DNA from: an uncultured Anaerolineales bacterium
GTDB lineage: Bacteria > Chloroflexota > Anaerolineae > UBA7937 > B3-Chlor
NCBI GenBank assembly: GCA_964577995.1
Contig: CAZOBP010000002.1
Coordinates: 15,972 to 79,971 of the forward strand
DNA length: 64,000 nucleotides
Reading direction: 5' to 3'
The notes under the pieces are model-generated. The model made no database searches, had not been told where the DNA came from, and saw only the letters and a list, made by a program, of their open reading frames with translations. Positions 10,650 to 49,137 of this stretch are shown in pieces. The translations under genes were made by a program, and so were the position numbers. How positions within the stretch are numbered: position 1 is the stretch's first letter; each line of letters opens with the position of its first letter.

Positions 10650-10944
10650 CAGGCCACGGCCGGTGATTCGGTTGGGATCATTCCTCACACCCAGGTCGTG
10701 GAGCGCGAACTGCGGAGTTGTCCCGCCGGCGGCGGATAGCACAGACTCGATGCCGATTGTATGGGGTGAGCGGGGAGTTTGCGATGACCATGACGAGCAG
10801 TACGATCACTGTGGCCAGGAACGAATACTGGTGTTCGCTGTGTAGCATGGGTGAGCAGACAGATAGCGTGCCCTGAAAACGTTGGGACTACGGGCTAGCT
10901 ACCTGGTTCTTCACAAGGACCGGAGGGTGATGAGGCGCTAAACG

Positions 10945-12146: not shown

Positions 12147-12156
12147 GGCAAGAAGG

Positions 12157-17146: not shown

Positions 17147-17151
17147 GAGCT

Positions 17152-20100: not shown

Positions 20101-21504
20101 TTTGGCATTGGGCAGGGCATTACTGGCCAAGTGGCTGCCACAGGGAATGCAGAGGTGGTGAATGATGTCCATAGGGATCCGAGAGGCTTGCACATCCCCG
20201 GGACCACACAAGAACCGATGTCTATGCTGTGTGTGCCACTTGCCATCAAGGGGGATGTGGCAGGAGTGATGGCAGTGTCTAGGTTCGGAGAGCGGCCCTT
20301 CGATGACCAGGATCTCCAGTTGGCGATCAGCATGGCGAGCCATGCGGCGACCGCCATCGAGAACTCCCGGCTCTATCAATCGGTTGCTGACAGAGAGACC
20401 AAACTCCGGGACCAGATCGAATCTGCCGCCGATGCCATCTTCAATCTGGATCCCCAGGGGAGGTTAACGCTCTTCAACGGGGAGGCGGAGAGGCTCTCTG
20501 GCTTCAGGCGCGATGAGGTATTGGGATACCACTACACTCAGATGCTGTGGCCGGAGCAGACCGAGCAGATGCGCAGTCTGCTGTCGCCCGATGTCGGTGG
20601 GGAAGTATTACAGCAAGCCTATGAGATCGATTTCCTCGACAAGTGGGGACAGCGGGTTCCTATGGAGATCCGCGTCAGCGCTCTCGAGCGTGCAGGACGT
20701 CTGGAGGGCTGGCAAGTCATCGGTCGGGATGTCAGCGAGCGACGGCGTCTTGAGGAGATGAAGAGCCAGTTCCTGGCTACCGTGTCGCATGATTTGAGAA
20801 CGCCCTTGGCATCAATCATGGGTTTCACCGAGATGCTTGTGGAGGGAAGCCCCGGTCCCTTGACAGAGATACAGGATGAGTTCCTCGGGATAGTCTTCGA
20901 GAACTCCCAGCGCCTGATGGCTCTGGTCAACGATCTCCTGGACATCTCCAAGTTGGAGGTTGGGCGGACCAGCCTGGTGGTGAAGACCATAGAGTTGCCG
21001 CGCCTGATCGCTGGTGTGATTGACGAGATGAGCCCGCTGACCTACAGGAAGAACATCTCGCTCGAGGTAGACTGTGCAGAGACGCTGCCCCCGACACAAG
21101 GCGATCAAAGGCGACTGGAGCAGGTCCTCAACAACCTGCTTTCCAACGCAGTGAAGTTCACGCCTGAGGGAGGAAGGGTGGAAGTCAAGGCGGAGCTGGA
21201 AGGGGAGCAGTTGGTGGTCACCGTGAGAGACACGGGTCTCGGCATACCTCCGGACGATCTGCCCCATCTGTTTCAGCCGTTTCACCGAGGTGGGAATGTG
21301 ACCGAGCAGGCTATCGAGGGGACGGGTCTGGGCCTGAGCATTGCCAAGGCTTTGGTCGAGGCGCACGGTGGCGACATGGGAGTGGAGAGCGAGTTGGGCA
21401 AAGGTAGCACGTTCTGGTTCACGTTACCTGTCAAGGAACCTGCGCTGTCTGAGCCAGTCCAGACCGATGGAGGACCGGATCTGGGATCGTTGCCACGTGG
21501 TTGA
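17152..21504 (+). CDS. Large multi-PAS/multi-GAF sensor histidine kinase
   Basis: Coiled-coil N-terminus, repeated PAS blocks, three GAF-like blocks, H-box SHDLRTPL and HATPase boxes [27 protein letters not shown] 17152 follows GGGAGGTGAGAG. There is no receiver domain. Confidence 0.9.
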
Positions 21505-22805: not shown

Positions 22806-25145
22806 GTGACTGTGTGTTCGGCAACAGGCGACGTCGAGGATTGCGGATCCGGTGCTTCGCACCGTGAGTTGATGGCACTCGATGCGCTTGTCAAATCGAG
22901 TGCGGAATCCGCAGATCTAGACGAAGTGCTCTGGCTTGCCCTGGACAGGATTGCGGAGATCACAGGGCTTGAGATCGCCTACGTCAGCCTGTATGACGAG
23001 GAGAGGCGGGAACTGGAGGTCGTCGCCCATACGGCTCGGGACGAGGACCCTTCTGGCAAGGATAGTTGGACGATGTTGCCCCAGGACCTTGTGGGGCGAG
23101 TTGCTCGCACGGCGGAAGCAGTATTGGTTGAGGACACCTGGGTAGATCCCAGATTCTCCGATGGGACGGCTGCGCAGCCGCAAGTTCGTAGCGCTGCGAG
23201 CATACCGCTCAAGTCTAGAGGGACCGTGTTGGGCGTCTTGAGCGTGGCGAGTGCACAGCCGTTTCGATTCACCCCCCTTCATCAGGCCTTCTTGTCCGTC
23301 CTGGCTGGTCAACTGAGTTGGGCGATTGAGAGCACCGTTCTGCGAGAGAGGCTGAATAGCTCTCGGCTCCATCTGCGAGAACGGGTCAAGGAACTCAGCA
23401 TCCTCTATGACGTTAGCCGGGAAGCTCTGGTGGCTGAGAACGTTGAACGCTTCTTGACCTTTGTGGCCCGGCGACTACCGGCCTCGATGCAGCACCAGCG
23501 GGCGAAGGCAGTCGTGTTCTGCAGCGCGGGGACCTGCGACTACTCGACGTGGTCAGACAATGTGGACGAGGCCATCGCGGAGAGGTTGGCCGTCGTCCCT
23601 GGTGAGGGGACACTGGGCAAGCTCCTGGTCGATAGGGGAGTGCTCTTGGAGTATGCAATCTCCAGGCTGGACGATCTCCTGGGGGAGTGCGACGTCAAGT
23701 CCGTGCTGGCGGTACCGGTCTTCGTCAACGGGGAGACGATAGGCTCGATTGCCGTGTACTACCAGAATGATAGATGGCGCTTCCTGGAGGAGGAGATCGA
23801 TCTGCTTCGCGGGATCTCAGAGCAAGTGGCGCAGTACCTCGCGCGGGATGCCATAGAACGGGAGAACCAGCGCCACGTTCAAGAGGTTTCCACTCTCTTC
23901 GAGGTCTCCAAGGCACTTGCATCTGTCGTGGATATTGAGGGGCTACTGCCCGCCATCCAACACACGCTGATGGAGGCGGTCGGACCTGCCGAAGCCGGGG
24001 TTCTCTTGCTGTTCGACAAGGTGACGGGGATGCTCCGGGTTGCATCCTCTTTCGGCTACGACGTCGAGACCTTGCACAGGGTCAGCTTGCGAACAGGCGA
24101 GTCCATATCCGGCCAAGTGTTCGAATCTGGCATGCCGGGGGTCTGGAGCACTCCAGACGAGTCTGAGTCTGCCATGGCCACCATGACCGCGCACAACCGT
24201 GAGTTCTTCAGGCAGGCATCGCGCGGTCTGGACTTTCCCAGAAGTGCAATTGGCGTACCGCTCATATATCGGGATGAGAAGATTGGCGTGCTCACGCTGG
24301 AGACCTTTGGCAGCGCTGAGTGGTTCTCGGGGTCACACGTTCCGTTCCTGCAAGCCCTTGCCGAGTTGTTGGTCATCAATCTAACTCAGATCCGACTGCT
24401 ACAGGAGACAGAGGAAGCTCGGGCCGTGCAGGAGGCGGACCGGTTGAGATCGGAACTGATCGCGGCGTTGGCGCATGATATGCGCACCCCGCTGACCTCC
24501 ATACAGGGTTACGCGTCGGCGTTGTTGCTCGACGACGTCGAGTGGGACGAAACATCCCGGGCAAGACAGTTGCAGATCATAGAAGCGGAGGCCAGGGATC
24601 TGCAGGCCATGGTCCAGGACTTGCTGGAATCATCTATTGTCGACGCCGGCCTGCTGACATTGGCTAAGGAACCCACTCTGGTGCCTCGCCTGGTCGAGAG
24701 TCTAGTGCGTGAGATGGCTCGTCGCACGGCAAGGCATCGATTTGTGCTAAGCTTCCCCGCTGACTTTCCGATCATAGATGCGGACCCCCGGCGTCTCGAG
24801 CAAGTGATACGCAACGTGCTCGACAATGCCGTGAAGTATTCGCCTGACGGCGGGCTGGTGGTCGTAAGGGGGCAGGTGGCTGGTGACGAGGTCATCATCA
24901 GCGTGGCCGACAATGGCGTGGGAATCGCCCCAGAACACCTGAACCGACTCTTCGAGAAGTTCTTCCGGGTGAAGTCGCCCATTGGTGAAAAAGTGCGGGG
25001 CACGGGACTTGGGCTTCCAGTATCCCGCACTATAGTGGAAAGCCACGGCGGCAGGATCTGGGCCGAGAGCGAGGTGGGCAAGGGAACGACCATGTACTTC
25101 TCTCTGCCCTGCCGGCAAGGCGCAGATACACATGCATCCGACTGA
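22806..25145 (+). CDS. Multi-GAF sensor histidine kinase
   Basis: GAF-like blocks, H-box AHDMRTPLTSI and HATPase boxes NVLDNAVKYS, DNGVGI, GTGLGL. The start is uncertain (GTG 22806 or ATG 22872). Confidence 0.9.
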   Translation: MTVCSATGDVEDCGSGASHRELMALDALVKSSAESADLDEVLWLALDRIAEITGLEIAYVSLYDEERRELEVVAHTARDEDPSGKDSWTMLPQDLVGRVARTAEAVLVEDTWVDPRFSDGTAAQPQVRSAASIPLKSRGTVLGVLSVASAQPFRFTPLHQAFLSVLAGQLSWAIESTVLRERLNSSRLHLRERVKELSILYDVSREALVAENVERFLTFVARRLPASMQHQRAKAVVFCSAGTCDYSTWSDNVDEAIAERLAVVPGEGTLGKLLVDRGVLLEYAISRLDDLLGECDVKSVLAVPVFVNGETIGSIAVYYQNDRWRFLEEEIDLLRGISEQVAQYLARDAIERENQRHVQEVSTLFEVSKALASVVDIEGLLPAIQHTLMEAVGPAEAGVLLLFDKVTGMLRVASSFGYDVETLHRVSLRTGESISGQVFESGMPGVWSTPDESESAMATMTAHNREFFRQASRGLDFPRSAIGVPLIYRDEKIGVLTLETFGSAEWFSGSHVPFLQALAELLVINLTQIRLLQETEEARAVQEADRLRSELIAALAHDMRTPLTSIQGYASALLLDDVEWDETSRARQLQIIEAEARDLQAMVQDLLESSIVDAGLLTLAKEPTLVPRLVESLVREMARRTARHRFVLSFPADFPIIDADPRRLEQVIRNVLDNAVKYSPDGGLVVVRGQVAGDEVIISVADNGVGIAPEHLNRLFEKFFRVKSPIGEKVRGTGLGLPVSRTIVESHGGRIWAESEVGKGTTMYFSLPCRQGADTHASD

Positions 25146-25186: not shown

Positions 25187-26434
25187 ATGGATAAGCTGAA
25201 CCCGTTCGAGATCGCGCAGAGGCAGCTAGATGAAGCTGCGGAGATCCTGGGCCTCGACCCAGGGATGCATGCCCTTCTGCGAGAGCCGCTGCGGGAGCTG
25301 CACGTGACCCTCCCGGTCAGGATGGACGATGGTTCCGTGGAGGTCTTCAAAGGCTTCCGTGTACAGTACAACGACGCCCGCGGCCCAGCCAAGGGCGGCC
25401 TGCGCTTTCATCCGGAGGAGACCATTGACACTGTGCGGGCTTTGGCCGCCTGGATGACCTGGAAGACTGCGGTGGTGGACATACCGCTGGGAGGCGGCAA
25501 AGGGGGAATAATCTGCAACCCCAAGGAGATGTCTCAGGCTGAGTTGGAGCGACTGAGCAGGGCGTACATTCGGCAAGTGGGTCGCATACTGGGACCCAAG
25601 TCAGACGTTCCGGCGCCTGACGTGTATACGAACCCTCAGATCATGGCCTGGATGATGGACGAGTACTCCGTGATGCAGGGGCACAGCGAGCCCGGCGTCA
25701 TTACGGGCAAGCCGTTGGCCCTGGGAGGGTCTGCCGGCCGTATGGATGCCACGGCCAGAGGAGGCATGTATTGTCTGCGTGAAGCAGGCAAGGTGCTGGG
25801 CATCGACTTGAAGGGTGCTACCACTGCCATCCAAGGCTATGGCAACGCTGGCTACTACGGCCAGGTCCTTGGGGAGGAGTTGCTGGGGCTGAATGTCATC
25901 TGCGTGAGCGACTCGAGGGGCGGAATCGTCTGCGACGGTGGCCTGGAGTGCGAAGAGGTCAAGGGCCACAAGGACGAGACCGGTACTTGTGTGGGCCTAC
26001 CCGACTCCGAGCCCATCAGCAACGAGGAGCTGCTGGAGTTGGACGTGGACGTGCTGGTTCCGGCCGCGCTGGAGAACGTCATCACCGAGGAGAACGCTCA
26101 TCGGGTGAAGGCGAAGATCGTGGTCGAACTTGCCAATGGACCTACGACACCGGAAGCCGACAGAATACTCCACGAGAACGGGGTATACGTCATTCCCGAT
26201 TTCCTGTGCAACGCCGGAGGAGTCGTCGTCTCCTACTTCGAGGGAGTGCAGAACGCCTACAACTACTACTGGGACCTCGAGGAGGTTTACGAAAGGCTGG
26301 ATCGGAAGATGACAGCCGCCTTCCACGCGGTGCACGAGATGGCTCAAGCCAAGGGGGTACACAACCGGCTGGCGGCCTATCTGGTGGCAGTGGCCAGGGT
26401 CGCCGACGCCGTGAAACTCCGTGGCTGGGCGTGA
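25187..26434 (+). CDS. gdhA: Glutamate dehydrogenase
   Basis: 415 aa with [16 protein letters not shown] and GYGNAGYY (Glu/Leu/Phe/Val dehydrogenase family). AAGGAGAATGGAG RBS. Confidence 0.95.
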
Positions 26435-26499
26435 ACCATCAGTAGCACCCTGGGGAGGAGGTCGCCGGGCAGCGCCAACTGGAATTGGCGGGATGCGAA

Positions 26500-27207
26500 G
26501 TGAAAAAAGAAGCCATTCTCGTGGTTGATGATGAGCCGCGGCTTGTCAGGCTGGTGCACGAGATCATGACGGCGGTGGGCTACGACGTACTCAGTGCACG
26601 CGATGGCAAGGAGGCATTGGAGGTCCTGGCCATCGAGGAACCAGACCTGGTTCTGCTGGACATCATGTTGCCTGGCGACATGGACGGCTATGATGTGTGC
26701 AGGCGGGTGAGAGAGTTCTCGGCCGTACCCGTCGTCATGCTGACGGCCAAGACGCGCGAGGTGGACATGCTGGAAGGCTTCGACGTCGGCGCTGATGACT
26801 ATCTGACCAAGCCTTTCAATGCCAAGGAGCTGATCGCGAGGGTCAAGGCGGTCTTGCGCCGCAGTACACTGCCTGGCAAGGAAGCCATGATCACGGCTGA
26901 CCTGTCGTGCGGCGACCTGACAGTCAGCTTCGCCCGGCGCAACGTCAGGATGGGGGAGCGGGAAATTGCCCTCACGCCAACCGAGTTCAAGCTGCTCCAG
27001 CAGCTAGCGCTGAACACGAACCGCGTGATGCTGCACGAGGACTTACTGACGGAGGTCTGGGGTCCTCAGTATCGCGACGACATAGACTATCTTCGAGCAT
27101 ACGTGCGCCATCTGCGGCTGAAGATAGAAGACGATCCGTCTCAACCCTGCTACATCCTCACCACCCCTGGGGTGGGCTACATGCTTTCGTGCCCCGAGGG
27201 CAGCTAG
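26500..27207 (+). CDS. OmpR-family response regulator
   Basis: ILVVDDEP, LLDIMLPGDMDG, YLTKPF, then a winged helix (TEFKLL, GVGYML). The likely start is GTG 26500. Confidence 0.9.
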   Translation: MKKEAILVVDDEPRLVRLVHEIMTAVGYDVLSARDGKEALEVLAIEEPDLVLLDIMLPGDMDGYDVCRRVREFSAVPVVMLTAKTREVDMLEGFDVGADDYLTKPFNAKELIARVKAVLRRSTLPGKEAMITADLSCGDLTVSFARRNVRMGEREIALTPTEFKLLQQLALNTNRVMLHEDLLTEVWGPQYRDDIDYLRAYVRHLRLKIEDDPSQPCYILTTPGVGYMLSCPEGS

Positions 27208-27250
27208 AAGACCCTCCATAGCACGCGCACTGCCATACTTGCATGCGAAG

Positions 27251-27278
27251 AACCCGTGATTTTTCACGGGTTTTTCAT
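27251..27278 (+). terminator. Intrinsic terminator
   Basis: AACCCGTGA-TTTT-TCACGGGTT followed by a T-rich run. Confidence 0.75.
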
Positions 27279-27367
27279 TTCTCTGCCCCTCCCTTTTATG
27301 AGAACTCCACGGATTGTCCGGTAGAATGATACTGGCGCGATGCGTTGTAGCCACGAGACCTTCAGAC

Positions 27368-27422: not shown

Positions 27423-27914
27423 GTGGATTTCCAGCTGGCGTTTGACGCGAGTGAGATTGATGACTTGTTGAATGGCAAGAGAGATGGCGGAAACGGATCT
27501 CTGATGGATGTGTTGGAGGAAGTCCAGGCGCGCTACCGGTATCTGCCGAGGGATGCGCTGATCTTGATCAGCGAGAGCATGGGAGTGCCGTTGAGCCAGA
27601 CTTACGGTGTGGCTACCTTCTACAATGCCTTCAGCCTGAAGCCCAAGGGCAGGCATGTCATCAACGTGTGCACTGGGACAGCGTGCATGGTCCGAGGCGC
27701 CAAGAAGGTCCTAGAGAGGATCTCCGAGAGGCTGGGCATACAGCCTGGCGAGACTACGGAAGACGGGCAATTCACGTTGGAGACGGTGAATTGCCTGGGT
27801 GCCTGTGCTTTGGGACCCGTGGTTGTGGCGGACGGTGCATACTCCGGGGAGATGACCAGTGCGAAGACAGACGCGTTGCTGAAAGAAGTGATGAGTGAGG
27901 TCGAGACGGTATAG
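27423..27914 (+). CDS. NuoE/HoxE-like thioredoxin-fold [2Fe-2S] protein
   Basis: CTGTAC ... CLGAC cluster motifs and ATFYN. AAGGAGGGG RBS before the GTG. Confidence 0.9.
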   Translation: MDFQLAFDASEIDDLLNGKRDGGNGSLMDVLEEVQARYRYLPRDALILISESMGVPLSQTYGVATFYNAFSLKPKGRHVINVCTGTACMVRGAKKVLERISERLGIQPGETTEDGQFTLETVNCLGACALGPVVVADGAYSGEMTSAKTDALLKEVMSEVETV

Positions 27915-27917
27915 CAC

Positions 27918-29771
27918 ATGACCATGGTACGAACCCCCGAAGAGTTGGAGAGCCTCAAGCAGAAGCTGCTGGCAGCAAGGGAACCCGACAAGCCGCGGGT
28001 CTCCGTGTGTTGCGGGACCGGCTGTCGGGTCCATGGAAGCATGGATGTGATCGAGGCTTTTCGACAGGAGATTGACAAGCGGAATCTGAACGGGGACATC
28101 AGCGTCGTCGGCACAGGATGCCATGGGTTCTGTGAAAAGGGTCCCGTTGTCGTCCTCAAGCCAAGCGGCGTCTTCTATCAGAGAGTGGGTCTAGGGGATG
28201 TCCCTGAGATCGTCTCCGAGACTGTGCTCAATGGGGCGGTCATCGACAGGCTGACCTACGTAGATCCGGCAAGCGGTGCGAAGGTAGTCTACGAAGAGGA
28301 CGTGCCCTTCTATCGCAAGCAGCAGCGGCTGGTGCTGGACCTGAACGGTGACATCGATCCCACCAACATAGAGGACTACATTGCCTTTGGCGGATACGCG
28401 GCGTTGGGCAAGGCTCTGCACCAGATGAAGCCTGAAGGGGTGATCGAGGAGGTTGTGGAGTCCGGACTGCGAGGGCGAGGCGGCGCAGGGTTCCCAGCGG
28501 GGATCAAGTGGAGACTGTGCCGAGAGGCAGATGGAGACACCAAGTACATCATCTGCAATGCAGACGAGGGCGACCCGGGTGCATACATGGATCGCAGCAT
28601 CATGGAGGGCAATCCTCACAGAGTAGTGGAGGGCATGATCATCGGCGCCTGGGCCATTGGCGCGCACGAGGGATACGTCTACATCCGCAATGAGTATCCT
28701 CTAGCGGTGGAGAACCTCAGAATAGCCATAGGGCAGGCGCAGGAGTATGGATTCCTCGGCCATGACATTCTGGGTTCGGGCTTCGATTTCTCGATCCACA
28801 TACGCCCCGGGAGCGGCGCGTTCGTGTGTGGCGAGGAGACCGCCCTGATGGCGTCCATTGAGGACAGGATTGGGGAGCCGAGACCGAGACCGCCATATCC
28901 AGCGGAAAGGGGTCTGTGGGGCAAGCCGACCAACATCAACAATGTGGAGACCTGGGCGAACGTACCCATCGTGATCGATCGGGGAGGAGAGTTGTACTCC
29001 CAGATAGGCACGGACAAGAGCAAGGGCACCAAGATCTTCTCAGTGGTGGGGAACATCAACAACACAGGGCTGGTCGAGGTGCCCATGGGGACCACTTTGT
29101 CCGAGATCGTTTACGACATCGGCGGTGGCGTTCCGGGGGGCAAGGAGTGCAAGGCAGTTCAGCTTGGCGGACCGTCCGGAGGATGTCTGCCTCGGGAGCA
29201 TTTCGATGTCCCTATCGACTTCGAGTCCTTGCAGGAACTTGGTGCCATCATGGGCTCTGGCGGCATGGTGGTCTGTGACGAGGATACCTGTATGGTGGAG
29301 TTTGCCAGGTACTTCATGGATTTCGTTCAGCAGGAATCCTGCGGCAAATGCGTGCCCTGTCGTCTGGGGACGAGGGCCATGCTAGAGGTGCTCACCAGGA
29401 TCACGCAGGGAGAGGGCCAGGAAGGAGACATCGAATACCTGGAGGAGTTGGCCAAACAGATCAGGGAGTCCTCTCTGTGTGGCCTGGGGCAGACTGCGCC
29501 CAATCCCGTGCTCTCGACAATACGTTACTTCCGCGATGAGTACGAAGCGCATATCCGGGACAAGCACTGTCCGGCTCACGTTTGCAGGGCTCTGATTCAC
29601 TATTCCGTTGATCCCGAGAAGTGCACTGGCTGCGGACGCTGCCTTCGCAACTGTCCGGCTGAGGCCATAAGCGGCGCCAAGAAGGAACCCCACAACATAG
29701 ACCAGGAGAAGTGCATCAAGTGCGGTTCCTGCTATGAGCTGTGCAAGTTCGATGCAATCGTCGTGGAGTAG
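27918..29771 (+). CDS. NuoF/HoxF/HydB-like NAD(H)-binding FMN flavoprotein with extra Fe-S domains
   Basis: N-terminal Trx-like 2Fe-2S (CCGTGC, CHGFCEKGP), GLRGRGGAGFPAGIKW, ESCGKCVPCR, and two C-terminal CxxCxxCxxxCP-type motifs. Confidence 0.9.
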   Translation: MTMVRTPEELESLKQKLLAAREPDKPRVSVCCGTGCRVHGSMDVIEAFRQEIDKRNLNGDISVVGTGCHGFCEKGPVVVLKPSGVFYQRVGLGDVPEIVSETVLNGAVIDRLTYVDPASGAKVVYEEDVPFYRKQQRLVLDLNGDIDPTNIEDYIAFGGYAALGKALHQMKPEGVIEEVVESGLRGRGGAGFPAGIKWRLCREADGDTKYIICNADEGDPGAYMDRSIMEGNPHRVVEGMIIGAWAIGAHEGYVYIRNEYPLAVENLRIAIGQAQEYGFLGHDILGSGFDFSIHIRPGSGAFVCGEETALMASIEDRIGEPRPRPPYPAERGLWGKPTNINNVETWANVPIVIDRGGELYSQIGTDKSKGTKIFSVVGNINNTGLVEVPMGTTLSEIVYDIGGGVPGGKECKAVQLGGPSGGCLPREHFDVPIDFESLQELGAIMGSGGMVVCDEDTCMVEFARYFMDFVQQESCGKCVPCRLGTRAMLEVLTRITQGEGQEGDIEYLEELAKQIRESSLCGLGQTAPNPVLSTIRYFRDEYEAHIRDKHCPAHVCRALIHYSVDPEKCTGCGRCLRNCPAEAISGAKKEPHNIDQEKCIKCGSCYELCKFDAIVVE

Positions 29772-29785
29772 AAAGGCGACAGTGG

Positions 29786-30469
29786 ATGATCATCCTAACC
29801 ATCAATGGCCGGGAAGTTGAGGCCATAGAAGGTTCAACGATACTGGAAGCTGCGCGGGAGAACGGCATCGAGATTCCGACTCTTTGCTACCATGAGGCTC
29901 TCGAGCCCTACGGTAGCTGCCGCCTCTGTGTGGTCGAGCTGGCTACGCCCAGGGGGCCTCGCCTGGTTGCGTCCTGCGTTTATCCTGCCGAGGAAGGGGC
30001 GGTAGTGAAGACCGATTCCGAGATGGTGCAGCGCTCGCGCCGCATGACTGTGGAGTTGCTGTTGGCTTCTGCTCCCCACGCGAAGGTCATACAGGAGTTG
30101 GCTGCGGAAATGGGCGTGCAGGAGCCTCGGGTGAGCCTGGGCGACAACGATTGCATACTATGCGGCCTGTGCGTACGGGCCTGTCGCGAGATTGTCGGGG
30201 CCAACGCCATTAGTCTTGTCAATCGAGGCTTCAGCAAAGAGGTAAGCCCTCCCTTCGAGATCGGCTCCAATGCCTGTATTGGTTGCACAACCTGCGTCTT
30301 CATCTGTCCGACGGGCGCCATCAAGCTGGAGGATGTTCTGGCCAACAGATCTGTGCATCGTTGGGCCTCGGATTTCGAGGCCACAGCTTGCAAGATCTGT
30401 GGTGACCACTATCTTGCGCCCGAGTTCGCGGCGGAAGTGGAACAGCCGCTCGATGCAAAGGGCGTGTGA
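29786..30469 (+). CDS. [2Fe-2S]/[4Fe-4S] protein resembling the NuoG/HydA N-terminal Fe-S module, with no catalytic domain
   Basis: INGREVEA..GSTILEAA, CYHEALEPYGSCRLC, CILCGLCVRAC and CIGCTTCVFICP. Confidence 0.8.
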   Translation: MIILTINGREVEAIEGSTILEAARENGIEIPTLCYHEALEPYGSCRLCVVELATPRGPRLVASCVYPAEEGAVVKTDSEMVQRSRRMTVELLLASAPHAKVIQELAAEMGVQEPRVSLGDNDCILCGLCVRACREIVGANAISLVNRGFSKEVSPPFEIGSNACIGCTTCVFICPTGAIKLEDVLANRSVHRWASDFEATACKICGDHYLAPEFAAEVEQPLDAKGV

Positions 30470-30505
30470 TCGGCAGTCTGGGACCTACCTGAAGGAGCAT
30501 GGGAA

Positions 30506-32629
30506 GTGACCGTTGAAGGCGAAGTCAGAATCGGCGTTTTCGTGTGCGAGTGCGGAGGGAAGATCTCGGATGCCGTTGACGTGGGGATGGTGGTAGAAGG
30601 CGCCGCGAAGATGCCCGGCGTAGTGCTGGCGCGGCGAGAACTCTATGGCTGCTCCAAGGCAGGACTCTGCGACATTGGGCAAGCGATAGAGGAACGGGGC
30701 CTGAATCGCGTGGTGATTGTCGGCTGCACACCTCGTACCCATGGGCCGCTGTTCGAGGGGGCCTTGAGCAAAGCAGGCTTGAGTGCCTCACTCTTTGAGA
30801 TGGTCAACGCCCGAGAGCAGTGCGCACTGGTGCACGCTGAGGATAAGGACGGGGCGAACAAGAAGGCCCTGGACTTGACACGAATGGGAGTGGCCAAGGC
30901 AGCGGTGCTAGAGCCTGTGCAGAAGGTGGAAGTCAACGTGGCACCGATGGCCTTAGTCATCGGCGGGGGAATAGCTGGCCTCACCGCGGCCACGACGGTG
31001 GCCGCGAGAGGGTTTCCCGTCAAACTGGTGGAGAAAGCACCGCAGTTGGGTGGTCAGGTCGCTCGACTGCATACTCTCTATCCATCCGGCGAGAGTGCCA
31101 AGGAGTTCATTGAGAAGAAGATCCGAGCTGCGAAGGAGCATGAGGATATCGAGGTGCTAGTTGGCGCCAGAGTGACAGACCTGTCAGGCCCGGCAGGTGA
31201 CTACAAGGTTACCGTGGCCCAGGACGGGAGGAATCTGGAGTTTCACGTGGGGGCGGTGATAGTGGCCACAGGGGCCCAAGAGGCTGAGCCTGGCGAGGGA
31301 TACGAGCACAGCAGTGTCCAAGTGATGACCCAGTCTGAGATGGAGCAGGCGTTGCAGCAGGGTGGTCCCCACGCCAAGCGTGCGGCGATAGTGGTGGTCG
31401 AGCCAAACCCCGAGCAGTACTCCTCAGTATCCGCCGCGGCAGCGCTGAAGAACTCCGCAGTGTTGAAGCGCAGAGATCCCGAAGCCACGGTTTCTCTGCT
31501 CTTCAACGATCTCTCTTCGGACCTCACTAGCACAATGATCGGGGAAGCGAGGGGCCTGGGCGTCCAGTTCTACAAATACGATGGAGATTTGCCTCCGCGC
31601 ATCACCGACCAGGGCGTGGAGGTCTTCGATCATTTGCGCGGAGGCCAAGCCACTATCCCCTGCGACCTGGTTGTGCTGGCTATGCCTTTGGTCCCACAGT
31701 CGGATGCCGCATCGGTTTCCAGAATGCTGGCCGTACCACTGGACGAGCGCGGCTTCCTGCTGGAACCCAGCATACGGCTGCGACCCGGGAGCTACATCCC
31801 CAGGGGCATCTTCGCATGTGGCAGCGCGCACTATCCGACGAATGCGCACGAGAGCATCTTCCAAGGCTATCGCGCAGGTGTGAGAGCCTTGAGCCATCTT
31901 TCGTCGGGCAGGCTCACCAGTCACGGGCCACGTCCCCGCGTGATTGACAGTCGCTGTGTGGGTTGCGGGACCTGTGTCGAGTCCTGCCCCTTCCATGCCA
32001 TTTCGATGCTCACCAGGGAAGGAACGCTGAGTGTGTCCCGGATCGATGTCTCGCTGTGCAACGGGTGCGGCAACTGCACGGTGGTATGTCCGGCCAAGGC
32101 CATCATCATGGAGACCTACGGAGACAGGGAGCTGATCGCTCAGATCAATGCAGCGTTGGCTGCTCGGAGGAACGGTGAGTCGCGGATACTCGCATTCCTC
32201 TGTGAGTGGAGCGGCTACGCGGCAGCCGACTTGGCCGGAGCCGAGGGCCGGCAGTATCCGTCCAACGTACGGATCATACGGGTCGGGTGTTCGGCACGTT
32301 TCGATCCCTATCTGGTTTTGTGGGCCTTCCTACAAGGTGCCGACGGCGTCCTATTGGGTGCATGCGATCCAGGCATGTGCCACTACATAGACGGAAACAG
32401 GTGGGCGGCAGAGCGGGTGGAGATGCTGGGCCGGATGCTCGAGCAAGCCGGCTTCGACTCCAGAAGACTGCATCTGGAGTGGTTCAAGCCCGATGATGCC
32501 CAGCAGTTTGTGAAAGTCGTGAGGGAATTCGCAGACGAGATAGAGTACCTGGGACCCATAGGCGAAGTTGACGCCGATCAGAGCCACTGGGCCACTGTGG
32601 GCGAGGAACTGCTGGTCTCTGAATCGTAG
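30506..32629 (+). CDS. HdrA-like FAD/Fe-S oxidoreductase fused to a C-terminal MvhD-like domain
   Basis: VFVCECGGKI...VIVGCTPRTH block, Rossmann VIGGGIAGLTAA..LVEK..LGG, CVGCGTCVESCP and CNGCGNCTVVCP. The C-terminus FLCEWSGYAAADLAG..RVGCSARFD..GACDPGMCHY is MvhD-like. Confidence 0.85.
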   Translation: MTVEGEVRIGVFVCECGGKISDAVDVGMVVEGAAKMPGVVLARRELYGCSKAGLCDIGQAIEERGLNRVVIVGCTPRTHGPLFEGALSKAGLSASLFEMVNAREQCALVHAEDKDGANKKALDLTRMGVAKAAVLEPVQKVEVNVAPMALVIGGGIAGLTAATTVAARGFPVKLVEKAPQLGGQVARLHTLYPSGESAKEFIEKKIRAAKEHEDIEVLVGARVTDLSGPAGDYKVTVAQDGRNLEFHVGAVIVATGAQEAEPGEGYEHSSVQVMTQSEMEQALQQGGPHAKRAAIVVVEPNPEQYSSVSAAAALKNSAVLKRRDPEATVSLLFNDLSSDLTSTMIGEARGLGVQFYKYDGDLPPRITDQGVEVFDHLRGGQATIPCDLVVLAMPLVPQSDAASVSRMLAVPLDERGFLLEPSIRLRPGSYIPRGIFACGSAHYPTNAHESIFQGYRAGVRALSHLSSGRLTSHGPRPRVIDSRCVGCGTCVESCPFHAISMLTREGTLSVSRIDVSLCNGCGNCTVVCPAKAIIMETYGDRELIAQINAALAARRNGESRILAFLCEWSGYAAADLAGAEGRQYPSNVRIIRVGCSARFDPYLVLWAFLQGADGVLLGACDPGMCHYIDGNRWAAERVEMLGRMLEQAGFDSRRLHLEWFKPDDAQQFVKVVREFADEIEYLGPIGEVDADQSHWATVGEELLVSES

Positions 32630-32662
32630 ATTCGAGGATGTAGGAGTTAGGGAGGACGCTTG

Positions 32663-33847
32663 ATGGTGAAGCGGATGGAATTGGAGGTTTGGGACCTGGA
32701 CAGATGTGCGGGCTGTGGCCTCTGCGTGGCCACGTGCTCCAAGGGCATGCTGCACTGGGATGGCGAGGCAAACCATCCGGTTAGAGAGGTAAGGCAGAAG
32801 AGGATCGGTCTCACAAACATCCCTCTCGATAGTTGCACTTTCTGCCAGGTGTTCTGTGAGGAGACGTGTCCCAGGCTTCATCAGTGGGAGGAGTTGCCAA
32901 CCCGTCGAGTGGTTTCGGCGAGGGCAGTGGGACCCGTCGAGAGCGGTGAGCCCATGGATGTGATCAAGGCACTCATGATCGGCAATCTGTCCGCCGGTGC
33001 AATAGATGGCGTGATCGCGAACGATATCAATGATTGGACCCTCCAACCGCGCGCAGAGGTGAAAACCACCGTCGAGGCGATGGCGGACAGCCTTGGGTTG
33101 CAGGGACTTTGGGTGCCCACCTTGGACAGACTCAACGAGGCGGTGTACGAGCGAAGACTGAGCAACATCGCAGTCGTCGGCCCCCCATGTTCTGCTGAGG
33201 CCATCAGAACGCTAAGAGCTTCGGGCAATGAGCGGCTGGCCCCATACAAGGACGCGCTGCGCTTGAGCGTTGCCTTGTTCTGTACGGGCGTTTACTACCC
33301 TGGCCAGGTGCGGGAGTTCCTCGAGGAGTCGATGGGCATAGTGGGCCGAGACGTGAAGCAGATCCACAGTTCGCCGCGCGAGAAGGAGCTGAGGGTCGTG
33401 CTGTGGGACGGTTCAACCATCACGGTTCCTCTGGCCAAGATAGAAGCCTATACACGACCGGGCTGCGCCACTTGCGGCGATTTCCTGGGAGAATCCGCAG
33501 ACATCTCTGTGGGTAAGGTGGGTGCGAAGGCAGGCTACTGTACACTGATCACCAGAAGCGCAACTGGCGATGATTGCCTACAAAACGCCGTCGATCTGGG
33601 ACTACTGGAGACTGTGGATGAGGTGGACGAGAAAGCGTTGCTTGCAGCAAAGGAGGACAAGGAGCGCAGGGAAAGGGCCCAGGCCTTCGATGACTTGATG
33701 CTGATGATGCTGGACGCTCTGAGAGAGCCTCAGAAGCGAGCTGAGGTGAGGCAAGAGTTCGTGAGGTTGTACGAGGTAGAGAGTGTACCTGAATCACTGC
33801 AGGAGGGAACGAGCCATGGCGCATGCGGCGAGTGTGCTGGATGCTAA
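32663..33847 (+). CDS. FrhB/FdhB-family (F420-hydrogenase/dehydrogenase beta-like) Fe-S flavoprotein
   Basis: CAGCGLCVATC and CTFCQVFCEETCP, then VVGPPCSAEAIRTL, ALFCTG and GCATCGDF..ADISVG. Confidence 0.8.
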   Translation: MVKRMELEVWDLDRCAGCGLCVATCSKGMLHWDGEANHPVREVRQKRIGLTNIPLDSCTFCQVFCEETCPRLHQWEELPTRRVVSARAVGPVESGEPMDVIKALMIGNLSAGAIDGVIANDINDWTLQPRAEVKTTVEAMADSLGLQGLWVPTLDRLNEAVYERRLSNIAVVGPPCSAEAIRTLRASGNERLAPYKDALRLSVALFCTGVYYPGQVREFLEESMGIVGRDVKQIHSSPREKELRVVLWDGSTITVPLAKIEAYTRPGCATCGDFLGESADISVGKVGAKAGYCTLITRSATGDDCLQNAVDLGLLETVDEVDEKALLAAKEDKERRERAQAFDDLMLMMLDALREPQKRAEVRQEFVRLYEVESVPESLQEGTSHGACGECAGC

Positions 33848-34481
33848 GGGAAAGGACTTGAGGGCGGCGAGTACAGAGCTCAAGTCTCTGCTCGCCAAGG
33901 AGCCGGTAGTTGTGAAGAACGCTTCCCATTTACACGGACTGTGTGGGGGACTCAAGCGCGGCGAGATAACCATAGACGGAGATGGGGGAGACTATCTGGG
34001 TGTGGTGAACAGTGGGGCCTTGATCAAGGTCACTGGCAATGCAGGCAAGTACGTCGCGGACAACATGACCTCGGGAAAAGTGATCGTAGAGGGAGATGCC
34101 GACTACGGCGCAGGTCAGTACTGCTATGGCGGCGAGGTGGTGGTCAAGGGTAACGCTGGCGATTTCACGGCCACGATGAACAAGGGTGCCACGATCGTGA
34201 TCGGCGGCGACGTGGGAGACGAAACCGCCACCTACATGGTCGGTGGCGATGTGGTCATCGTCGGCGACGCCGGAGAGAACCTGGGCAATTATCTCATCAG
34301 GGGCAACGTCTACATCGGGGGCGATTGGGACAGTCTGGGCCACAACTGCGCTGTTAGCGAAGTGGGTGTTGAGGACATCCAGAGATTGGAGTCTCTGTTA
34401 AGGGAGCACGGCGTCATTGTGAATGCCAAGACGTTCCGCAAGATCGTGCCCTTGTCGGACAAACCGTTCTACTCTCACTAG
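33816..34481 (+). CDS. GXGXG beta-helix protein (glutamate synthase alpha-subunit C-terminal domain / FwdC-like)
   Basis: Serial VTGNAGKYV, VEGDADYG, VKGNAGDF, IGGDVGDE and IVGDAGEN. ATG 33816 follows AGGAGGGA and overlaps the upstream gene by 32 nt. Confidence 0.8.
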   Translation: MAHAASVLDAKGKDLRAASTELKSLLAKEPVVVKNASHLHGLCGGLKRGEITIDGDGGDYLGVVNSGALIKVTGNAGKYVADNMTSGKVIVEGDADYGAGQYCYGGEVVVKGNAGDFTATMNKGATIVIGGDVGDETATYMVGGDVVIVGDAGENLGNYLIRGNVYIGGDWDSLGHNCAVSEVGVEDIQRLESLLREHGVIVNAKTFRKIVPLSDKPFYSH

Positions 34482-34492
34482 GAGGATTTCTG

Positions 34493-36037
34493 ATGTCGAC
34501 TGTCGGTGCCTTTTGCGTCACGCTGAACAAAGATCAGTGCATAAACGCTCGGATGCCTGGCAAGTGCGCAACGTGCGTGGAGATATGCCCGTATGGTGTC
34601 TATGGCCTCAATGGAAGCAACGAAGTAGTCGTACAGAACTACAACGCCTGTGTGGGTTGCCGCCTCTGCGCAGAGTTCTGCCCAGAGAACGCGATTCGCA
34701 TCAACCCGGCCGAGTCCGAGTTGGTTTCGCGATTTCCTTGGACCCTCGGGACTATCGAGGAGATCCACCACAAGGCCCTGACGGGCGGCTACGCGTTGAG
34801 GGGCTTCGGCACCATGGGGCCCACGCCGCATTTTGACACCATCGTGGTTGTGCCCTCGCAGCTAGCCTCTGCCTCGCCGAGAGACAAGTACCGCGAGGAG
34901 TGCAATATGGAGGTGGTGATCGGCGAAGACACGTGCGAGAAGCCGATCAGGTTGCAGTACCCGTTCATCTTTCCGGCCATGTCGTACGGTGCCCTGTCCA
35001 GGGAGGCGAAGCTCGCATTGGCTATCGCAGCAGCGAAGACGGGCATCTTGACCAACACCGGTGAGGGAGGCGTGGTCGAAGAAGAGCCCTACTACGCCAA
35101 TGGCTATGAGAAACCCAGCAGGAAGAAGAAGCGGTGGGAGCCTGGAGGCTACCTGGCTATCCAGTGGTCTACCGGACGATGGGGTGTCTCGGCCGACTAC
35201 GTCGATGCCGGGGACGCCGTGGAGGTCAAGATAGGTCAGGGTGCCAAACCCGGGATGGGTGGTCACCTGCTGGGCGATAAAGTCACAGAGGACATCGCGA
35301 GAATCCGCGGCATTCCTGTAGGTAGTGACGCATTGTCGCCGTGCAGGTACTACGATGTCACCGAGCCTGGTGATATCAAGAAGCAGGTGGGTTTTCTGAG
35401 GGACATCAGCAACTACGAGAAGCCGATCTTGATGAAGCTCGGTCCCAGCAGGCCGTATGACGACGTCAAGGCGGCGGCGCTGGCTGGGGTAGATGCCATC
35501 TCCATCGATGGGCTCGTCGGCGGGACCGGGTGTTCGCCCGAGGTCGTCACCCAGGGAGTGGGCATACCGACCATCGCCCTGATCGGCCCGGCGGTGAGGG
35601 CTCTCAAGGACCTGGGTCTCCATCGGAAGGTCAAGCTCTTCGCGCTGGGTGGAATGAGGAATGGGCTCGATGCCTACAAGGCGATGGCCATGGGCGCGGA
35701 TGGTGTAGGGTTTGGATCCGCTGCTGAGATAGCGATGGGGTGCCGAGGCTGCATGGCCTGTCACCAGGGCAACTGCCCGTATGGCATAACCTCGCAGAAC
35801 CCCAAGATGAGAGAGCGTCTCGATCCTGAGGAGATAGGTCAGCGTTTGGCGAACTTCATCAACGCATCGGCGGAAGAGGTGAAGATCTTGACCATGTTGT
35901 CGGGCCATTCGGATGTCAAAGAGCTGAGCGAAGAAGATCTGCGCGCCTTGGATGTGGACACAGCGGCGATAACTGGCTTGAAGTTGGTTGGTTATGAGAG
36001 GCCTCTGCCCTGGTGGGAGAACGGCCGTGGGAACTAG
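34493..36037 (+). CDS. Ferredoxin-domain + glutamate-synthase central (FMN) domain protein (archaeal-type GltB domain 2-like)
   Basis: CATCVEICP and CVGCRLCAEFCP, then TGEGG, KIGQGAKPGMGGHL, IDGLVGGTG and LGGMRNG. Confidence 0.85.
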   Translation: MSTVGAFCVTLNKDQCINARMPGKCATCVEICPYGVYGLNGSNEVVVQNYNACVGCRLCAEFCPENAIRINPAESELVSRFPWTLGTIEEIHHKALTGGYALRGFGTMGPTPHFDTIVVVPSQLASASPRDKYREECNMEVVIGEDTCEKPIRLQYPFIFPAMSYGALSREAKLALAIAAAKTGILTNTGEGGVVEEEPYYANGYEKPSRKKKRWEPGGYLAIQWSTGRWGVSADYVDAGDAVEVKIGQGAKPGMGGHLLGDKVTEDIARIRGIPVGSDALSPCRYYDVTEPGDIKKQVGFLRDISNYEKPILMKLGPSRPYDDVKAAALAGVDAISIDGLVGGTGCSPEVVTQGVGIPTIALIGPAVRALKDLGLHRKVKLFALGGMRNGLDAYKAMAMGADGVGFGSAAEIAMGCRGCMACHQGNCPYGITSQNPKMRERLDPEEIGQRLANFINASAEEVKILTMLSGHSDVKELSEEDLRALDVDTAAITGLKLVGYERPLPWWENGRGN

Positions 36038-36213: not shown

Positions 36214-36744
36214 ATGGGTACAGTCACGATTGATGGCACTGCCATCCAAGACATGGTGCAGAGTGCGCTGGCGTTCTCCGCTCAGAAGGCGGTCTTACCA
36301 GCCGTGGATGAGGTGCGGCAGGCTGTCGCAGGTGGCGACTGCATCGTGTGTGGGTACCTTAGGTATGCACTGTCCAAGGAGATAGGTGAATACCTTGGTA
36401 CGATAGACACATCGGTGCAAGCCGTCTATGCTTACGAGCCTGAGTACGCTGCAGGTGCGCTTCACATTGACTCTGCTCGGCCAGCGATGGACGCCGGCAT
36501 CAACCTCATCGTCTCCGTGGACCGGAAGAACGCTGCACTCAGCTCCATTGTCGCGTCCCTGGAGGACGCAGTCAAGGAAGGGGTGAAGTCCCTGCTTTGC
36601 TCGAACGCCAATGGGTCTTGCTACGCCTTCGACGTCAGGGTGGTTGATGGCGAAGAAGTGGCTTCGAGGCATGGCTACGGGGCGCTCGTCTCGTCGATCT
36701 ACGCAGCCCCTGTCAAGCTTTGGGCCAGGGGTGACGGAGCCTAG
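36214..36744 (+). CDS. Hypothetical protein (176 aa)
   Basis: ATG 36214 follows GAAGGAGG. I recognise no motif. It is followed by a strong hairpin. Confidence 0.5.
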   Translation: MGTVTIDGTAIQDMVQSALAFSAQKAVLPAVDEVRQAVAGGDCIVCGYLRYALSKEIGEYLGTIDTSVQAVYAYEPEYAAGALHIDSARPAMDAGINLIVSVDRKNAALSSIVASLEDAVKEGVKSLLCSNANGSCYAFDVRVVDGEEVASRHGYGALVSSIYAAPVKLWARGDGA

Positions 36745-36828
36745 GTCAGCGTGACTGTTGGGTAGCGGAGACGACTATCCCGTAGGCACTGCGAAGTTGC
36801 GTGGTGACATTCTTCCTTCTCCTTACAT

Positions 36829-36862
36829 ACCCGCAGCACGGGGGGAACCTCGTGCTGCGGGT
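36829..36862. terminator. 12-bp perfect hairpin between convergent genes
   Basis: ACCCGCAGCACG-GGGGGAACCT-CGTGCTGCGGGT. There is no clear U-tract, so terminator function is inferred from position. Confidence 0.5.
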
Positions 36863-37027
36863 GCATTAGGCCTCGGATAGGACGGAGTGGGGTGTCCTCG
36901 TTAGCCCATTGGTGTCCGTCGGCGCTGCGACTACCGGGGAGCCATGCATAGGTGAGCTGTGTGGCACCATGGGGCTACCGCGTGGACTACACCGATCCGC
37001 TCTGCGGGGGAGCCGAGCGGCAGGGGC

Positions 37028-44814: not shown

Positions 44815-44832
44815 CTGTGTGTGGATCCCCCA

Positions 44833-45423: not shown

Positions 45424-45524
45424 CTTCCAAGTCCTTTCTCCACTGTCCGGTCACAGTCTGAAGGCGTGCAGCGGGCGCCACACGCCTTCGGTAGTAGATG
45501 AGTCCGCATTCACGCGAGCGTACG

Positions 45525-48932: not shown

Positions 48933-48979
48933 GGTTCTTCCTCCGCCAACATTAAGAAGCCGGGGTTCCACCCAATAGT

Positions 48980-49008
48980 ATTATGCCTTCTTTTGACGAG
49001 ATTGTCAA
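48980..49008 (-). promoter_or_regulatory. Sigma70-like promoter TTGACA-17nt-CATAAT (minus strand)
   Basis: The minus strand reads TTGACAatctcgtcaaaagaaggCATAAT, about 45 nt upstream of the TPR gene ATG. Confidence 0.5.
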
Positions 49009-49137
49009 TGTCAGTTCTCCGCGGTTGGTTGAATAGGGACCATCATCGGGGCACACGCGGGACGAACCGGGGTCCATGCCCACCATATCGGGCAGAAGTA
49101 TGGCGCTGATCATCAACAATCAGCGATCAGGTCGACG

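Follow-up and report, generated by a model that had tools for sequence, protein, structure and literature searches.

The window analysed here, a stretch of 64,000 nt from an uncultured Anaerolineales bacterium (contig CAZOBP010000002.1), carries at positions 27423-36037 seven co-directional, tightly packed open reading frames (ORFs) on the plus strand, named g1 to g7. With a probability of about 0.5, and by analogy with characterised enzymes, this operon would encode one soluble multi-subunit Fe-S flavoenzyme, a glutamate synthase (GltS)-like reductase without glutaminase that is fed by a Bfu-type NADH/ferredoxin module through an HdrA/MvhD protein acting as a wire. All of the parts are of known kinds; what appears to be new is their combination, which is conserved across a whole bacterial class. 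Taking the most likely starts, the intergenic gaps from g1 to g7 range from -32 to +36 nt. The domains of the operon proteins were assigned with Pfam and NCBIfam, and the genes, together with g8, a probable eighth component, are as follows:

g1, 27423-27914, plus strand: BfuC/NuoE-like [2Fe-2S] subunit (Pfam 2Fe-2S_thioredx, E 2e-48), with a ribosome-binding site AAGGAGG 6 nt 5' of it
g2, 27918-29771, plus strand: BfuB, the NADH/flavin mononucleotide (FMN) subunit, with an N-terminal 2Fe-2S, an N3-like 4Fe-4S, the B2-site Cys pair and a C-terminal 2x4Fe-4S (Pfam and NCBIfam)
g3, 29741-30469, plus strand: small BfuA, NuoG-N/HoxU-like, with 2Fe-2S and 2x4Fe-4S (Pfam Fer2_4 and Fer4); probable start ATG at 29786
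g4, 30506-32629, plus strand: HdrA-like flavoprotein fused to MvhD (FlpD); the top NCBIfam model is HdrA2
g5, 32660-33847, plus strand: FrhB-like Fe-S flavoprotein (Pfam Fer4 and FrhB_FdhB_C), with an N-terminal 2x[4Fe-4S] ferredoxin domain (Fsr-N/FpoF-type architecture)
g6, 33783-34481, plus strand: GXGXG beta-helix subunit, GltB C-terminal domain/FwdC-like (Pfam GXGXG, E 1e-19; the NCBIfam match is to the C-terminal part of the glutamate synthase large subunit); probable start 33816
g7, 34493-36037, plus strand: archaeal-type GltS FMN/synthase subunit with an N-terminal 2x[4Fe-4S] (Pfam Glu_synthase, E 8e-104)
g8, 36214-36744, plus strand: 176-aa protein, 3' of g7

A preliminary description of the stretch had proposed seven genes with the same coordinates, domain content and gaps, and the ORF list, Pfam and NCBIfam all match it. 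It had also reported that hydrogenase, formate dehydrogenase and HdrB/C partners are missing, and domain searches indeed found no hydrogenase, formate dehydrogenase or CCG-domain (HdrB/C) gene in the operon or in the 64-kb window. A division of the cluster by internal promoters, a possibility that the description had raised, or by internal terminators was looked for and rejected, as the scan gave weak 5-bp stems within genes, in no excess over shuffled sequence. The window has a G+C content of about 60%, and the nearest relatives of its proteins belong to metagenome-assembled genomes of Anaerolineae (Chloroflexota).

Comparisons of 102 related loci by local tblastn showed that the seven genes are one conserved unit, far beyond a chance neighbourhood. 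These loci comprised 13 from species-representative genomes, contigs with homologues of g7 and g5, and 80 metagenome loci obtained by alignment of the FrhB-like protein; the metagenome loci, including groups 2 and 3, carry no taxonomy, and the Escherichia coli locus served only as a source of probes and stands outside the 102. The genome scan was made with a single protein, and all 13 loci that it gave are from Anaerolineae/Chloroflexota. The complete set of seven genes, in the same order and on a single strand, is present in 30 independent loci, including that of the cultured anaerobe Longilinea arvoryzae, in whose strain KOME-1 the operon sits at about DF967972.1:1,644,000-1,652,750, and shorter contigs hold partial runs that keep the seven-gene order. 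The sole apparent break of this order is L077, in which no g4 match lies between g3 and g5. At the lowest, identities among the loci came to about 33-40% (g4) and about 46-50% (g5); g7, the most conserved protein of the operon (59-98% identity), stays at 71-98% where those two fall and is therefore under the strongest constraint. Whether the genes form a unit or are independently mobile neighbours was a question raised with the preliminary description, and 30 colinear loci in which g4 identity falls so low answer it in favour of a unit. Among the 30 complete loci, g8 accompanies the operon in 24, a response regulator likewise in 24, and a glutamate dehydrogenase (GDH) in 16.

The first three genes are predicted to form a full Bfu-type NADH/ferredoxin module. 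The g2 protein aligns over its full length with BfuB of the NiFe-Bfu of Acetomicrobium mobile (7t2r_B, E 4e-263), with further matches to HydB of three bifurcating [FeFe]-hydrogenases (7q4v, 8a6t, and 7p5h) and to NfnB (9n5u). Its Complex1_51K and NADH_4Fe-4S domains correspond to the FMN/NADH site and the B1 cluster, and C475, C478, C481, and C521 are kept in 14 of 14 sequences. It also keeps the ligand motifs of the extra clusters B2-B5, namely the N-terminal 2Fe-2S, the RDKxCPAxxC motif (the B2-site pair), and the C-terminal 2x4Fe-4S; these extra clusters have been described as a marker of bifurcating BfuB, absent from non-bifurcating NuoF homologues (PMC9304861). Beside BfuB, g1 and g3 supply BfuC (NuoE-like 2Fe-2S) and a 2Fe-2S/4Fe-4S BfuA, with all four Cys of g1 kept in 13/13 sequences and twelve Cys of g3 in 14/14. 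The top solved relative of g3 is 9mqx_A, a 'NuoG-like' chain of 247 aa whose partner is of the BfuB type. The suggestion that the NuoEF-like part is of the bifurcating type is thus borne out by the full-length BfuB match and by the presence of every cluster motif.

The g4 protein is made up of an N-terminal [4Fe-4S], a flavin adenine dinucleotide (FAD) domain, a C-terminal 2x[4Fe-4S], and the MvhD [2Fe-2S], and its motifs indicate that it is not a canonical bifurcating HdrA. It aligns with methanogen HdrA (8rvu_a/5odc_A; E 7e-82) in two blocks, residues 6-242 with HdrA 11-247 and residues 239-551 with HdrA 320-653, and its MvhD part aligns with 5odc_D (E 1e-32). The alignment leaves out HdrA residues 248-319, that is, the inserted ferredoxin domain (HA5/HA6) is missing, and at the HA4 site (C-x12-C-x3-CC) g4 reads VVEPNPEQYSSVSAAAALK, with all four HA4 cysteines replaced. 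The FAD core is kept, as seen in the GGGIAG...VEK and C-terminal GIFACGSA motifs. In HdrA, HA4 passes the high-potential electron to HdrC/B, and the inserted HA5/HA6 domain is the low-potential exit (PMC12350162, PMC13518236); the role of the HA3->HA5 electron path has also been described (PMC12350162). Of the ligands on which HdrA depends, the FAD motif therefore stands in g4 and those of HA4 and HA5/HA6 do not, and the view that the operon pairs two bifurcating flavoproteins, one of them a canonical HdrA, is not supported.

A survey of 47 distinct g4 relatives from Bfu-linked operons extended this observation. The arm cysteines, which belong to the N-terminal, C-terminal, and MvhD clusters, are all invariant (16 cysteines in 47/47 relatives), while the FAD dinucleotide motif is intact in 34/47 and degenerate in 13/47, and a four-Cys HA4 is present in 22/47. 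Only 11 of the 47 combine an intact FAD motif with an intact HA4, and the inserted ferredoxin domain was found in none of these g4 relatives nor in the group-1 relatives aligned. The window clade of g4 has kept the FAD motif and lost HA4, and the Longilinea-type clade tends to the reverse. Selection would thus have kept the arm of g4 and not its bifurcating core, which points to a connector role. A loss of HA4 throughout the whole g4 family had been considered from 14 close relatives and was dropped, as almost half of the wider sample keeps this cluster.

At the other end of the operon, g5-g7 are, as far as domains and motifs can tell, an archaeal-type glutamate synthase lacking its glutaminase. 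The g7 protein aligns with the FMN domains of ferredoxin-dependent GltS (Fd-GltS; 1llw) and NADPH-GltS (2vdc and 6s6s), and the alignment to 1llw/2vdc and E. coli GltB showed that it keeps the TGEGG Glu, the QGAKPG Gln/Lys, and an Arg. We take these residues, from the structures of Fd-GltS, to be those that bind 2-oxoglutarate; the GltS-like pair keeps the 2-oxoglutarate/FMN-site residues and is, as had been proposed, the sole candidate catalytic unit. At the site of the 3Fe-4S ligands, g7 has the motif C-x2-C-x2-C-x4-C. This 4-Cys motif was considered as a hallmark of the operon and rejected, since classic archaeal-type loci share it. The top solved relatives of g5 are 8rja_E and 8riu_B, annotated as members of the F420 hydrogenase/dehydrogenase beta-subunit family, followed by FrhB and Fsr, and its twelve Cys are invariant in 19/19 sequences. 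FrhB-like, GXGXG, and FMN proteins are three of the four subunits of archaeal-type GltS, for which F420 dependence has been proposed (PMC3448663, PMC3087415).

The fourth subunit of that enzyme, glutaminase, was encountered only in the most distant loci (L095-L102), which show the classic order glutaminase-FMN-GXGXG-FrhB and a glutaminase start MCGIFGV. This archaeal-type glutaminase and the glutaminase domain of E. coli GltB, used as probes, matched these loci only; no glutaminase was found in the 64-kb window (best tblastn E 0.65, and a scan for the Ntn-start motif was also negative) or in about 95 other loci, so that its loss consistently marks this operon type. In the window, tblastn with the GltB central domain and with GltD likewise gave no match. 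The g7 proteins of groups 1 and 2 are only 34-35% identical to those of the classic four-subunit loci.

Diversity was observed among the loci in the module that precedes this catalytic end. In five of them (L012 at 1986-5234, L017 at 4297-7431, L034, L067, and L089), the NuoF/BfuB protein carries GltD-like Fer4_20 and Pyr_redox_2 domains instead of the C-terminal 2x[4Fe-4S], and this NuoF-GltD fusion brings a second pyridine-nucleotide site into the same operon type. In place of Bfu, two others (L083 and L087) encode a GltD-like protein together with a short, separate HdrA core that has HA4 and the inserted domain, next to a g4-like protein that retains HA4. An extra ELFV-type dehydrogenase, a free MvhD, and a ferredoxin/MvhD/CCG (HdrBC-like) fusion were detected in L080 and L082, the CCG domain being found among the variants only in the distant L080, which also carries a short HdrA core before its HdrA-MvhD/FrhB/GXGXG/GltS genes (2229-13440). 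HdrA in L080 and L083 seems to be divided between a 'core' protein and an 'arm' protein. The L083 locus (5060-13349) also holds a PurP-like DUF1246/DUF1297 gene. Finally, both Bfu and the HdrA flavin domain are missing from L042 (3402-14931); a histidine kinase and a response regulator are followed in it by g8, a fusion of g8 with four Fer4 and MvhD, FrhB, GXGXG, GltS, and a further g8, and then by the small and large subunits of a [NiFe]-hydrogenase, so that by its gene content it appears to be a hydrogenase-fed form of the FrhB/GXGXG/GltS core. What stays constant is the core MvhD-FrhB-GXGXG-GltS, whereas the Bfu module is exchangeable between lineages. Since one core would accept electrons from H2, NAD(P)H, or NADH/ferredoxin, it is best understood as a reductase with a hard-wired entry via MvhD.

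In the mechanism that we propose, the FMN of g1-g3 would exchange electrons with NADH, and the extra BfuB clusters would probably do so with ferredoxin. Electrons would exit via the BfuA clusters into the arm clusters of g4 and from there into MvhD, and g4, having lost both canonical FAD exits, would be mainly a connector. MvhD would then pass them to the Fe-S/FAD centres of the FrhB-like g5, which would deliver them to the N-terminal ferredoxin domain of g7, its 4-Cys cluster, and its FMN, where a 2-oxoglutarate-derived imine would be reduced to glutamate, g6 being the structural GXGXG partner. The nitrogen donor would most likely be free ammonia, because no glutaminase subunit is present. 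The net reaction would be NADH + reduced ferredoxin + 2 (2-oxoglutarate + NH4+) -> NAD+ + oxidised ferredoxin + 2 glutamate.

Several points weigh against this proposal. With donor electrons at about -400 mV and an acceptor couple near -0.13 V, much energy would be wasted, and such a drop is unusual for Bfu enzymes, for which the third substrates characterised fall between NADH and ferredoxin in potential. In the window clade, g4 has an intact FAD motif, which may reflect a catalytic role of this flavin, and g5, which keeps the FrhB core, could bind F420 or another hydride carrier and so add a point of entry or exit. A glutaminase may be encoded elsewhere in the genome, the searches having covered the window and the related loci, and a GDH beside an ammonia-dependent glutamate-forming enzyme looks redundant. 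In addition, the formation of a complex and the order of the wire are read from gene order and analogy, and the substrates and direction of the enzyme are our inference.

An energy-coupling glutamate enzyme that uses the FAD of g4 or g5 as a second flavin site besides the Bfu FMN/Fe-S site appears unlikely, whether as a bifurcating synthase or as a ferredoxin-assisted confurcating dehydrogenase. Bifurcation of the HdrA type, which we hold to be rather improbable, would have NADH electrons arrive via MvhD and split at the FAD of g4, with the GltS-like module in the position of HdrBC as the high-potential acceptor and ferredoxin reduced uphill (2 NADH + Fd(ox) + 2-oxoglutarate + NH3 -> 2 NAD+ + Fd(red) + glutamate). 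The potential of the glutamate couple is high enough to drive bifurcation, and an NADH-driven FlxABCD-HdrABC exists. An NADH-driven HdrABC-MvhD-MetVF is also known (PMC5736913), and the operon itself contributes an MvhD fused to g4 as in HdrA2-type proteins, the absence of HdrBC, and, in the window clade, the GGGIAG...E and C-terminal FAD motifs of g4. However, the two canonical exits from this FAD are gone, HA4 being replaced by VVEPNPEQYSSVSAAAALK and the inserted domain deleted, and few of the g4 relatives combine the FAD motif with HA4 (the 11 of 47 mentioned above). Moreover, the same core is present in L042, which has no HdrA FAD domain, and g2 has the complete extra-cluster set of a bifurcating BfuB, unlike a plain NADH dehydrogenase. 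The idea in the preliminary description that a GltS-like module replaces HdrBC consequently survives in part: the genes are a conserved unit in which the GltS-like proteins are the only catalytic candidate, but g4 lacks the exits of HdrA and the hydrogenase-linked locus does without HdrA.

The annotation of the nearest solved relatives of g5 (the F420 family, FrhB, and Fsr) suggests another possibility, in which g5 would be a true oxidoreductase of F420 or a similar hydride carrier and the operon would join an NADH/ferredoxin:F420 oxidoreductase to an F420-type GltS, with F420 as a diffusible substrate. The FrhB-family proteins BciB and HCAR use ferredoxin and not F420, and hard-wired inputs via MvhD would make a diffusible carrier unnecessary. 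No F420-biosynthesis gene or other F420-dependent gene lies in the window, and F420 use by Anaerolineae was not established from the literature searched. We therefore give little credence to this explanation, even though the FrhB-like subunits of archaeal GltS have been proposed to oxidise F420H2 (PMC3448663, PMC3087415) and an F420-Bfu type has been predicted (PMC9304861).

Operation in the catabolic direction, as a confurcating glutamate dehydrogenase, seems more doubtful still. Glutamate and reduced ferredoxin would be oxidised together to yield 2 NADH, which would pull oxidative deamination in peptide-fermenting Anaerolineae, by analogy with the confurcating lactate dehydrogenase/Etf. The class consists of anaerobic fermenters according to the literature, the window encodes GDH, an aminotransferase (495-1607), and an amino-acid permease (61827-63998), and the lack of glutaminase suits the release of ammonia. 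Against this, production of H2 from glutamate would not be possible in the hydrogenase-linked L042, the variants linked to GltD look like biosynthetic NAD(P)H-GltS, and a conventional GDH is already encoded. Furthermore, the current Bfu model assigns NAD the role of high-potential partner and places the third substrate between NADH and ferredoxin (PMC9304861), and the electrons of glutamate are far too high in potential for that position. A low-potential reductase of another substrate, such as a different 2-oxo acid or imine, or an N-alkyl-glutamate as in N-methylglutamate synthase, is equally improbable, since the missing glutaminase and central domain, the labelling of some close homologues in databases as 'methylamine-glutamate N-methyltransferase subunit C', and the low identity of g7 to its classic counterparts are set against the full retention of the 2-oxoglutarate/FMN-contact residues of solved GltS, the recurrence of GDH as a neighbour, and the absence of MgsA-like or other partner genes.

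Comparison with known systems helps to place the Bfu-fed GltS-like reductase that we favour. Its first three genes have the architecture of Bfu complexes such as the NiFe-Bfu of A. mobile (7T2R) and 9MQX, which has a small BfuA, with a full-length BfuB and the same cluster set. The partner formed by HdrA/MvhD, FrhB-like, and GltS-like proteins, in contrast, is not among the types listed for the family (PMC9304861), and its presumed third substrate is far higher in potential than H2, formate, or NADPH. The joining of a Bfu-type to an HdrA-type module, to which the preliminary description had drawn attention, is as such already known from class II benzoyl-CoA reductase BamBCDEFGHI (Bam-Bfu), which combines BfuABC, an HdrA-type flavoprotein, and MvhD as this operon does (PMC9304861). 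Bam differs in its tungsten-pterin subunit and its need for very low potential, whereas the present operon ends in a GltS-like module and its g4 is without HA4 and the inserted domain. The pairing of FrhB and GltS has a precedent as well, in the putative F420-dependent glutamate synthase (PMC3448663). The archaeal four-subunit GltS (FGltS, for example the MTH193 cluster) shares with g5-g7 the Fer4 and FMN subunit with C-x2-C-x2-C-x4-C, the GXGXG subunit, and the FrhB-like subunit; the operon differs from it in having no glutaminase, a g7 that is about 35% identical, and an input through Bfu and HdrA-MvhD in place of what is presumably free F420H2.

The alignment of g4 to HdrA and MvhD also relates the operon to the MvhAGD, ElpABC, and FdhAB-HdrABC complexes. 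Unlike these methanogen complexes, it has no HdrB/C, no inserted domain, and, in this clade, no HA4, and its MvhD is fused to g4. In Elp-Hdr, an FrhB-family subunit delivers electrons through the arm clusters of HdrA and MvhD (PMC12350162), whereas here the flow is probably toward the FrhB-like subunit and not from it. In bacterial NADPH-GltS (GltBD), considered here together with the GltD-derived modules NfnAB and Nfn-Bfu/Stn, a pyridine-nucleotide flavoprotein feeds an Fe-S chain and then the FMN of GltS (PMC8097209). The operon resembles GltBD in this input-to-FMN logic, and its relatives fuse a GltD-like domain to NuoF, but it lacks GltD, glutaminase, and the central domain, its input is of the NuoEFG type, and its cluster motif has four Cys and not three. 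The preliminary description knew of no characterised complex of this composition, and in the literature searched we also found no description of a combination of Bfu, a decayed HdrA/MvhD, and a glutaminase-less GltS-like core.

The genes and signals that border the operon are the following:

22806-25145, plus strand: GAF-domain sensor histidine kinase (Pfam GAF x3, HisKA, and HATPase_c), the probable sensor of the operon's two-component system
25187-26434, plus strand: glutamate dehydrogenase of the ELFV type (Pfam ELFV_dehydrog_N and ELFV_dehydrog)
26485-27207, plus strand: OmpR-family response regulator (Pfam Response_reg and Trans_reg_C), conserved directly 5' of the operon
27247-27276, plus strand: intrinsic-terminator-like hairpin with a T-run, 13 pairs in the terminator scan (dG -21.1 kcal/mol, z -5.4)
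27262-27277, plus strand: direct repeat TTTCA-N5-TTTTCA, overlapping the 3' arm of that hairpin, a candidate OmpR-type regulator site
27298-27327, plus strand: promoter-like ATGAGA-18-TAGAAT from the promoter scan, with the -10 TAGAAT at 27322-27327
36828-36863, plus strand: GC-rich hairpin after g8 (dG -38.1 kcal/mol, z -6.0), with no U-tract and not called by the terminator scan

The pair of GAF histidine kinase and response regulator adjoins the operon in most related loci. GDH occurs in three placements, on the operon's own strand either upstream or downstream, or else downstream on the opposite one. The operon is probably controlled by the adjacent GAF-histidine kinase/OmpR-type regulator and co-regulated with GDH. 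The repeat TTTCA-N5-TTTTCA is probably the binding site of this regulator, because the upstream alignment shows it to be conserved even in loci where the left arm of the hairpin is not; it occurs 20 times in 1.07 Mb of loci, and 12 of these 20 occurrences sit 149-176 nt 5' of g1. The same sequence may be both part of a terminator and a regulator site. Both TATGAGA and TAGAAT are conserved in an alignment of nine loci. The region upstream of the operon is unusually rich in signalling genes: a 1473-aa cytoplasmic sensor kinase with multiple PAS and GAF domains (17083-21504) lies upstream of the operon-adjacent GAF kinase, and more response regulators are found at 9046-9771 and 11106-12146.

On the 3' side, the operon and g8 are likely an eight-gene transcription unit, because the strong hairpin at 36828-36863 sits after g8; this hairpin is possibly the end of the unit. 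The spacer of 176 nt between g7 and g8 has no significant fold (z +0.9), and convergent ABC-2 transporter genes follow g8. The terminators said to bracket the cluster thus stand in part: the hairpin with a T-run at 27247-27276 is real, whereas the one placed at 36829 is a hairpin without a U-tract that lies after g8 and was not called.

The protein encoded by g8 gave no Pfam match at E <= 1 and no PDB sequence match at E <= 10 beyond noise. It belongs to a family of 424 representative clusters without a Pfam model, characterised by a conserved CxxC and two further Cys, and this family travels with the FrhB/GXGXG/GltS core. Its members occur free, fused to a PPDK_N-type ATP-grasp protein right after g7 (Longilinea, L019, and P0324), fused to a polyferredoxin-MvhD (L042 and P0381), or fused to a DksA/TraR zinc finger; family coordinates in relatives include L016:13545-16094 and L042:6146-7933. 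An AlphaFold (AF2) model of g8 reached a pLDDT of 75, and Foldseek returned weak matches to the nucleotidyltransferase fold (minimal nucleotidyltransferases; E 0.02, TM about 0.35). The possibility that g8 is a disguised glutaminase or another known domain was rejected, as the sequence searches gave noise and the nucleotidyltransferase matches are too weak to assign. This protein is probably an accessory or docking subunit.

Other genes of the window have features of their own. Two adjacent acyl-CoA dehydrogenase ORFs were identified at 1654-2319 and 2846-3991. The first has the N-terminal and middle domains only (221 aa), and the roughly 500 nt after it hold no long ORF; a truncated or frameshifted copy may here stand next to an intact paralogue. 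Next to them are xanthine-dehydrogenase-family genes for an FAD-binding subunit (3999-4991) and a molybdopterin subunit (5381-7759), and L021 has a comparable set downstream of its operon. A TPR protein of 1148 aa (45525-48971) lies between a Sir2-family deacetylase (44089-44814) and a histone-deacetylase-family protein (49138-50163); over the stretch 44089-50163, G+C rises locally to 0.64 and the AT skew is strongly negative. An H+-pyrophosphatase gene is found at 51644-53914. The gene for SelB, the selenocysteine-specific elongation factor (56473-58389), indicates that the organism uses selenocysteine; just 5' of it, a 405-aa ORF (55250-56467) has no Pfam match at E <= 1e-5. A NurA-like nuclease (58399-59571) is paired with a HerA-like helicase (60184-61797), a pairing better known from archaea.

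A Bfu-fed enzyme of this kind would add an amino-acid/nitrogen-linked type of third substrate to the Bfu family. The MvhD/HdrA arm appears as a plug between varied inputs (Bfu, GltD, [NiFe]-hydrogenase, and Hdr) and one catalytic core, and the g4 relatives offer a natural series in which the bifurcating core of HdrA decays while the arm is retained. Should the operon encode an energy-coupling enzyme after all, 2-oxoglutarate/glutamate would be a new high-potential partner in electron bifurcation, and nitrogen assimilation or amino-acid catabolism would be tied directly to the ferredoxin pool in very abundant anaerobes; in the bifurcating form, reduced ferredoxin would be made at the expense of a very exergonic reductive amination. 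The operon would be of relevance to research on electron bifurcation and on the nitrogen metabolism of anaerobes. In anaerobic digesters, sediments, and sludges, Anaerolineae belong to the core community, and little is known of their energy and nitrogen metabolism. The operon opens the question whether the formation or oxidation of glutamate can be coupled to the ferredoxin pool in these bacteria, for which a cultured host, Longilinea arvoryzae, is available.

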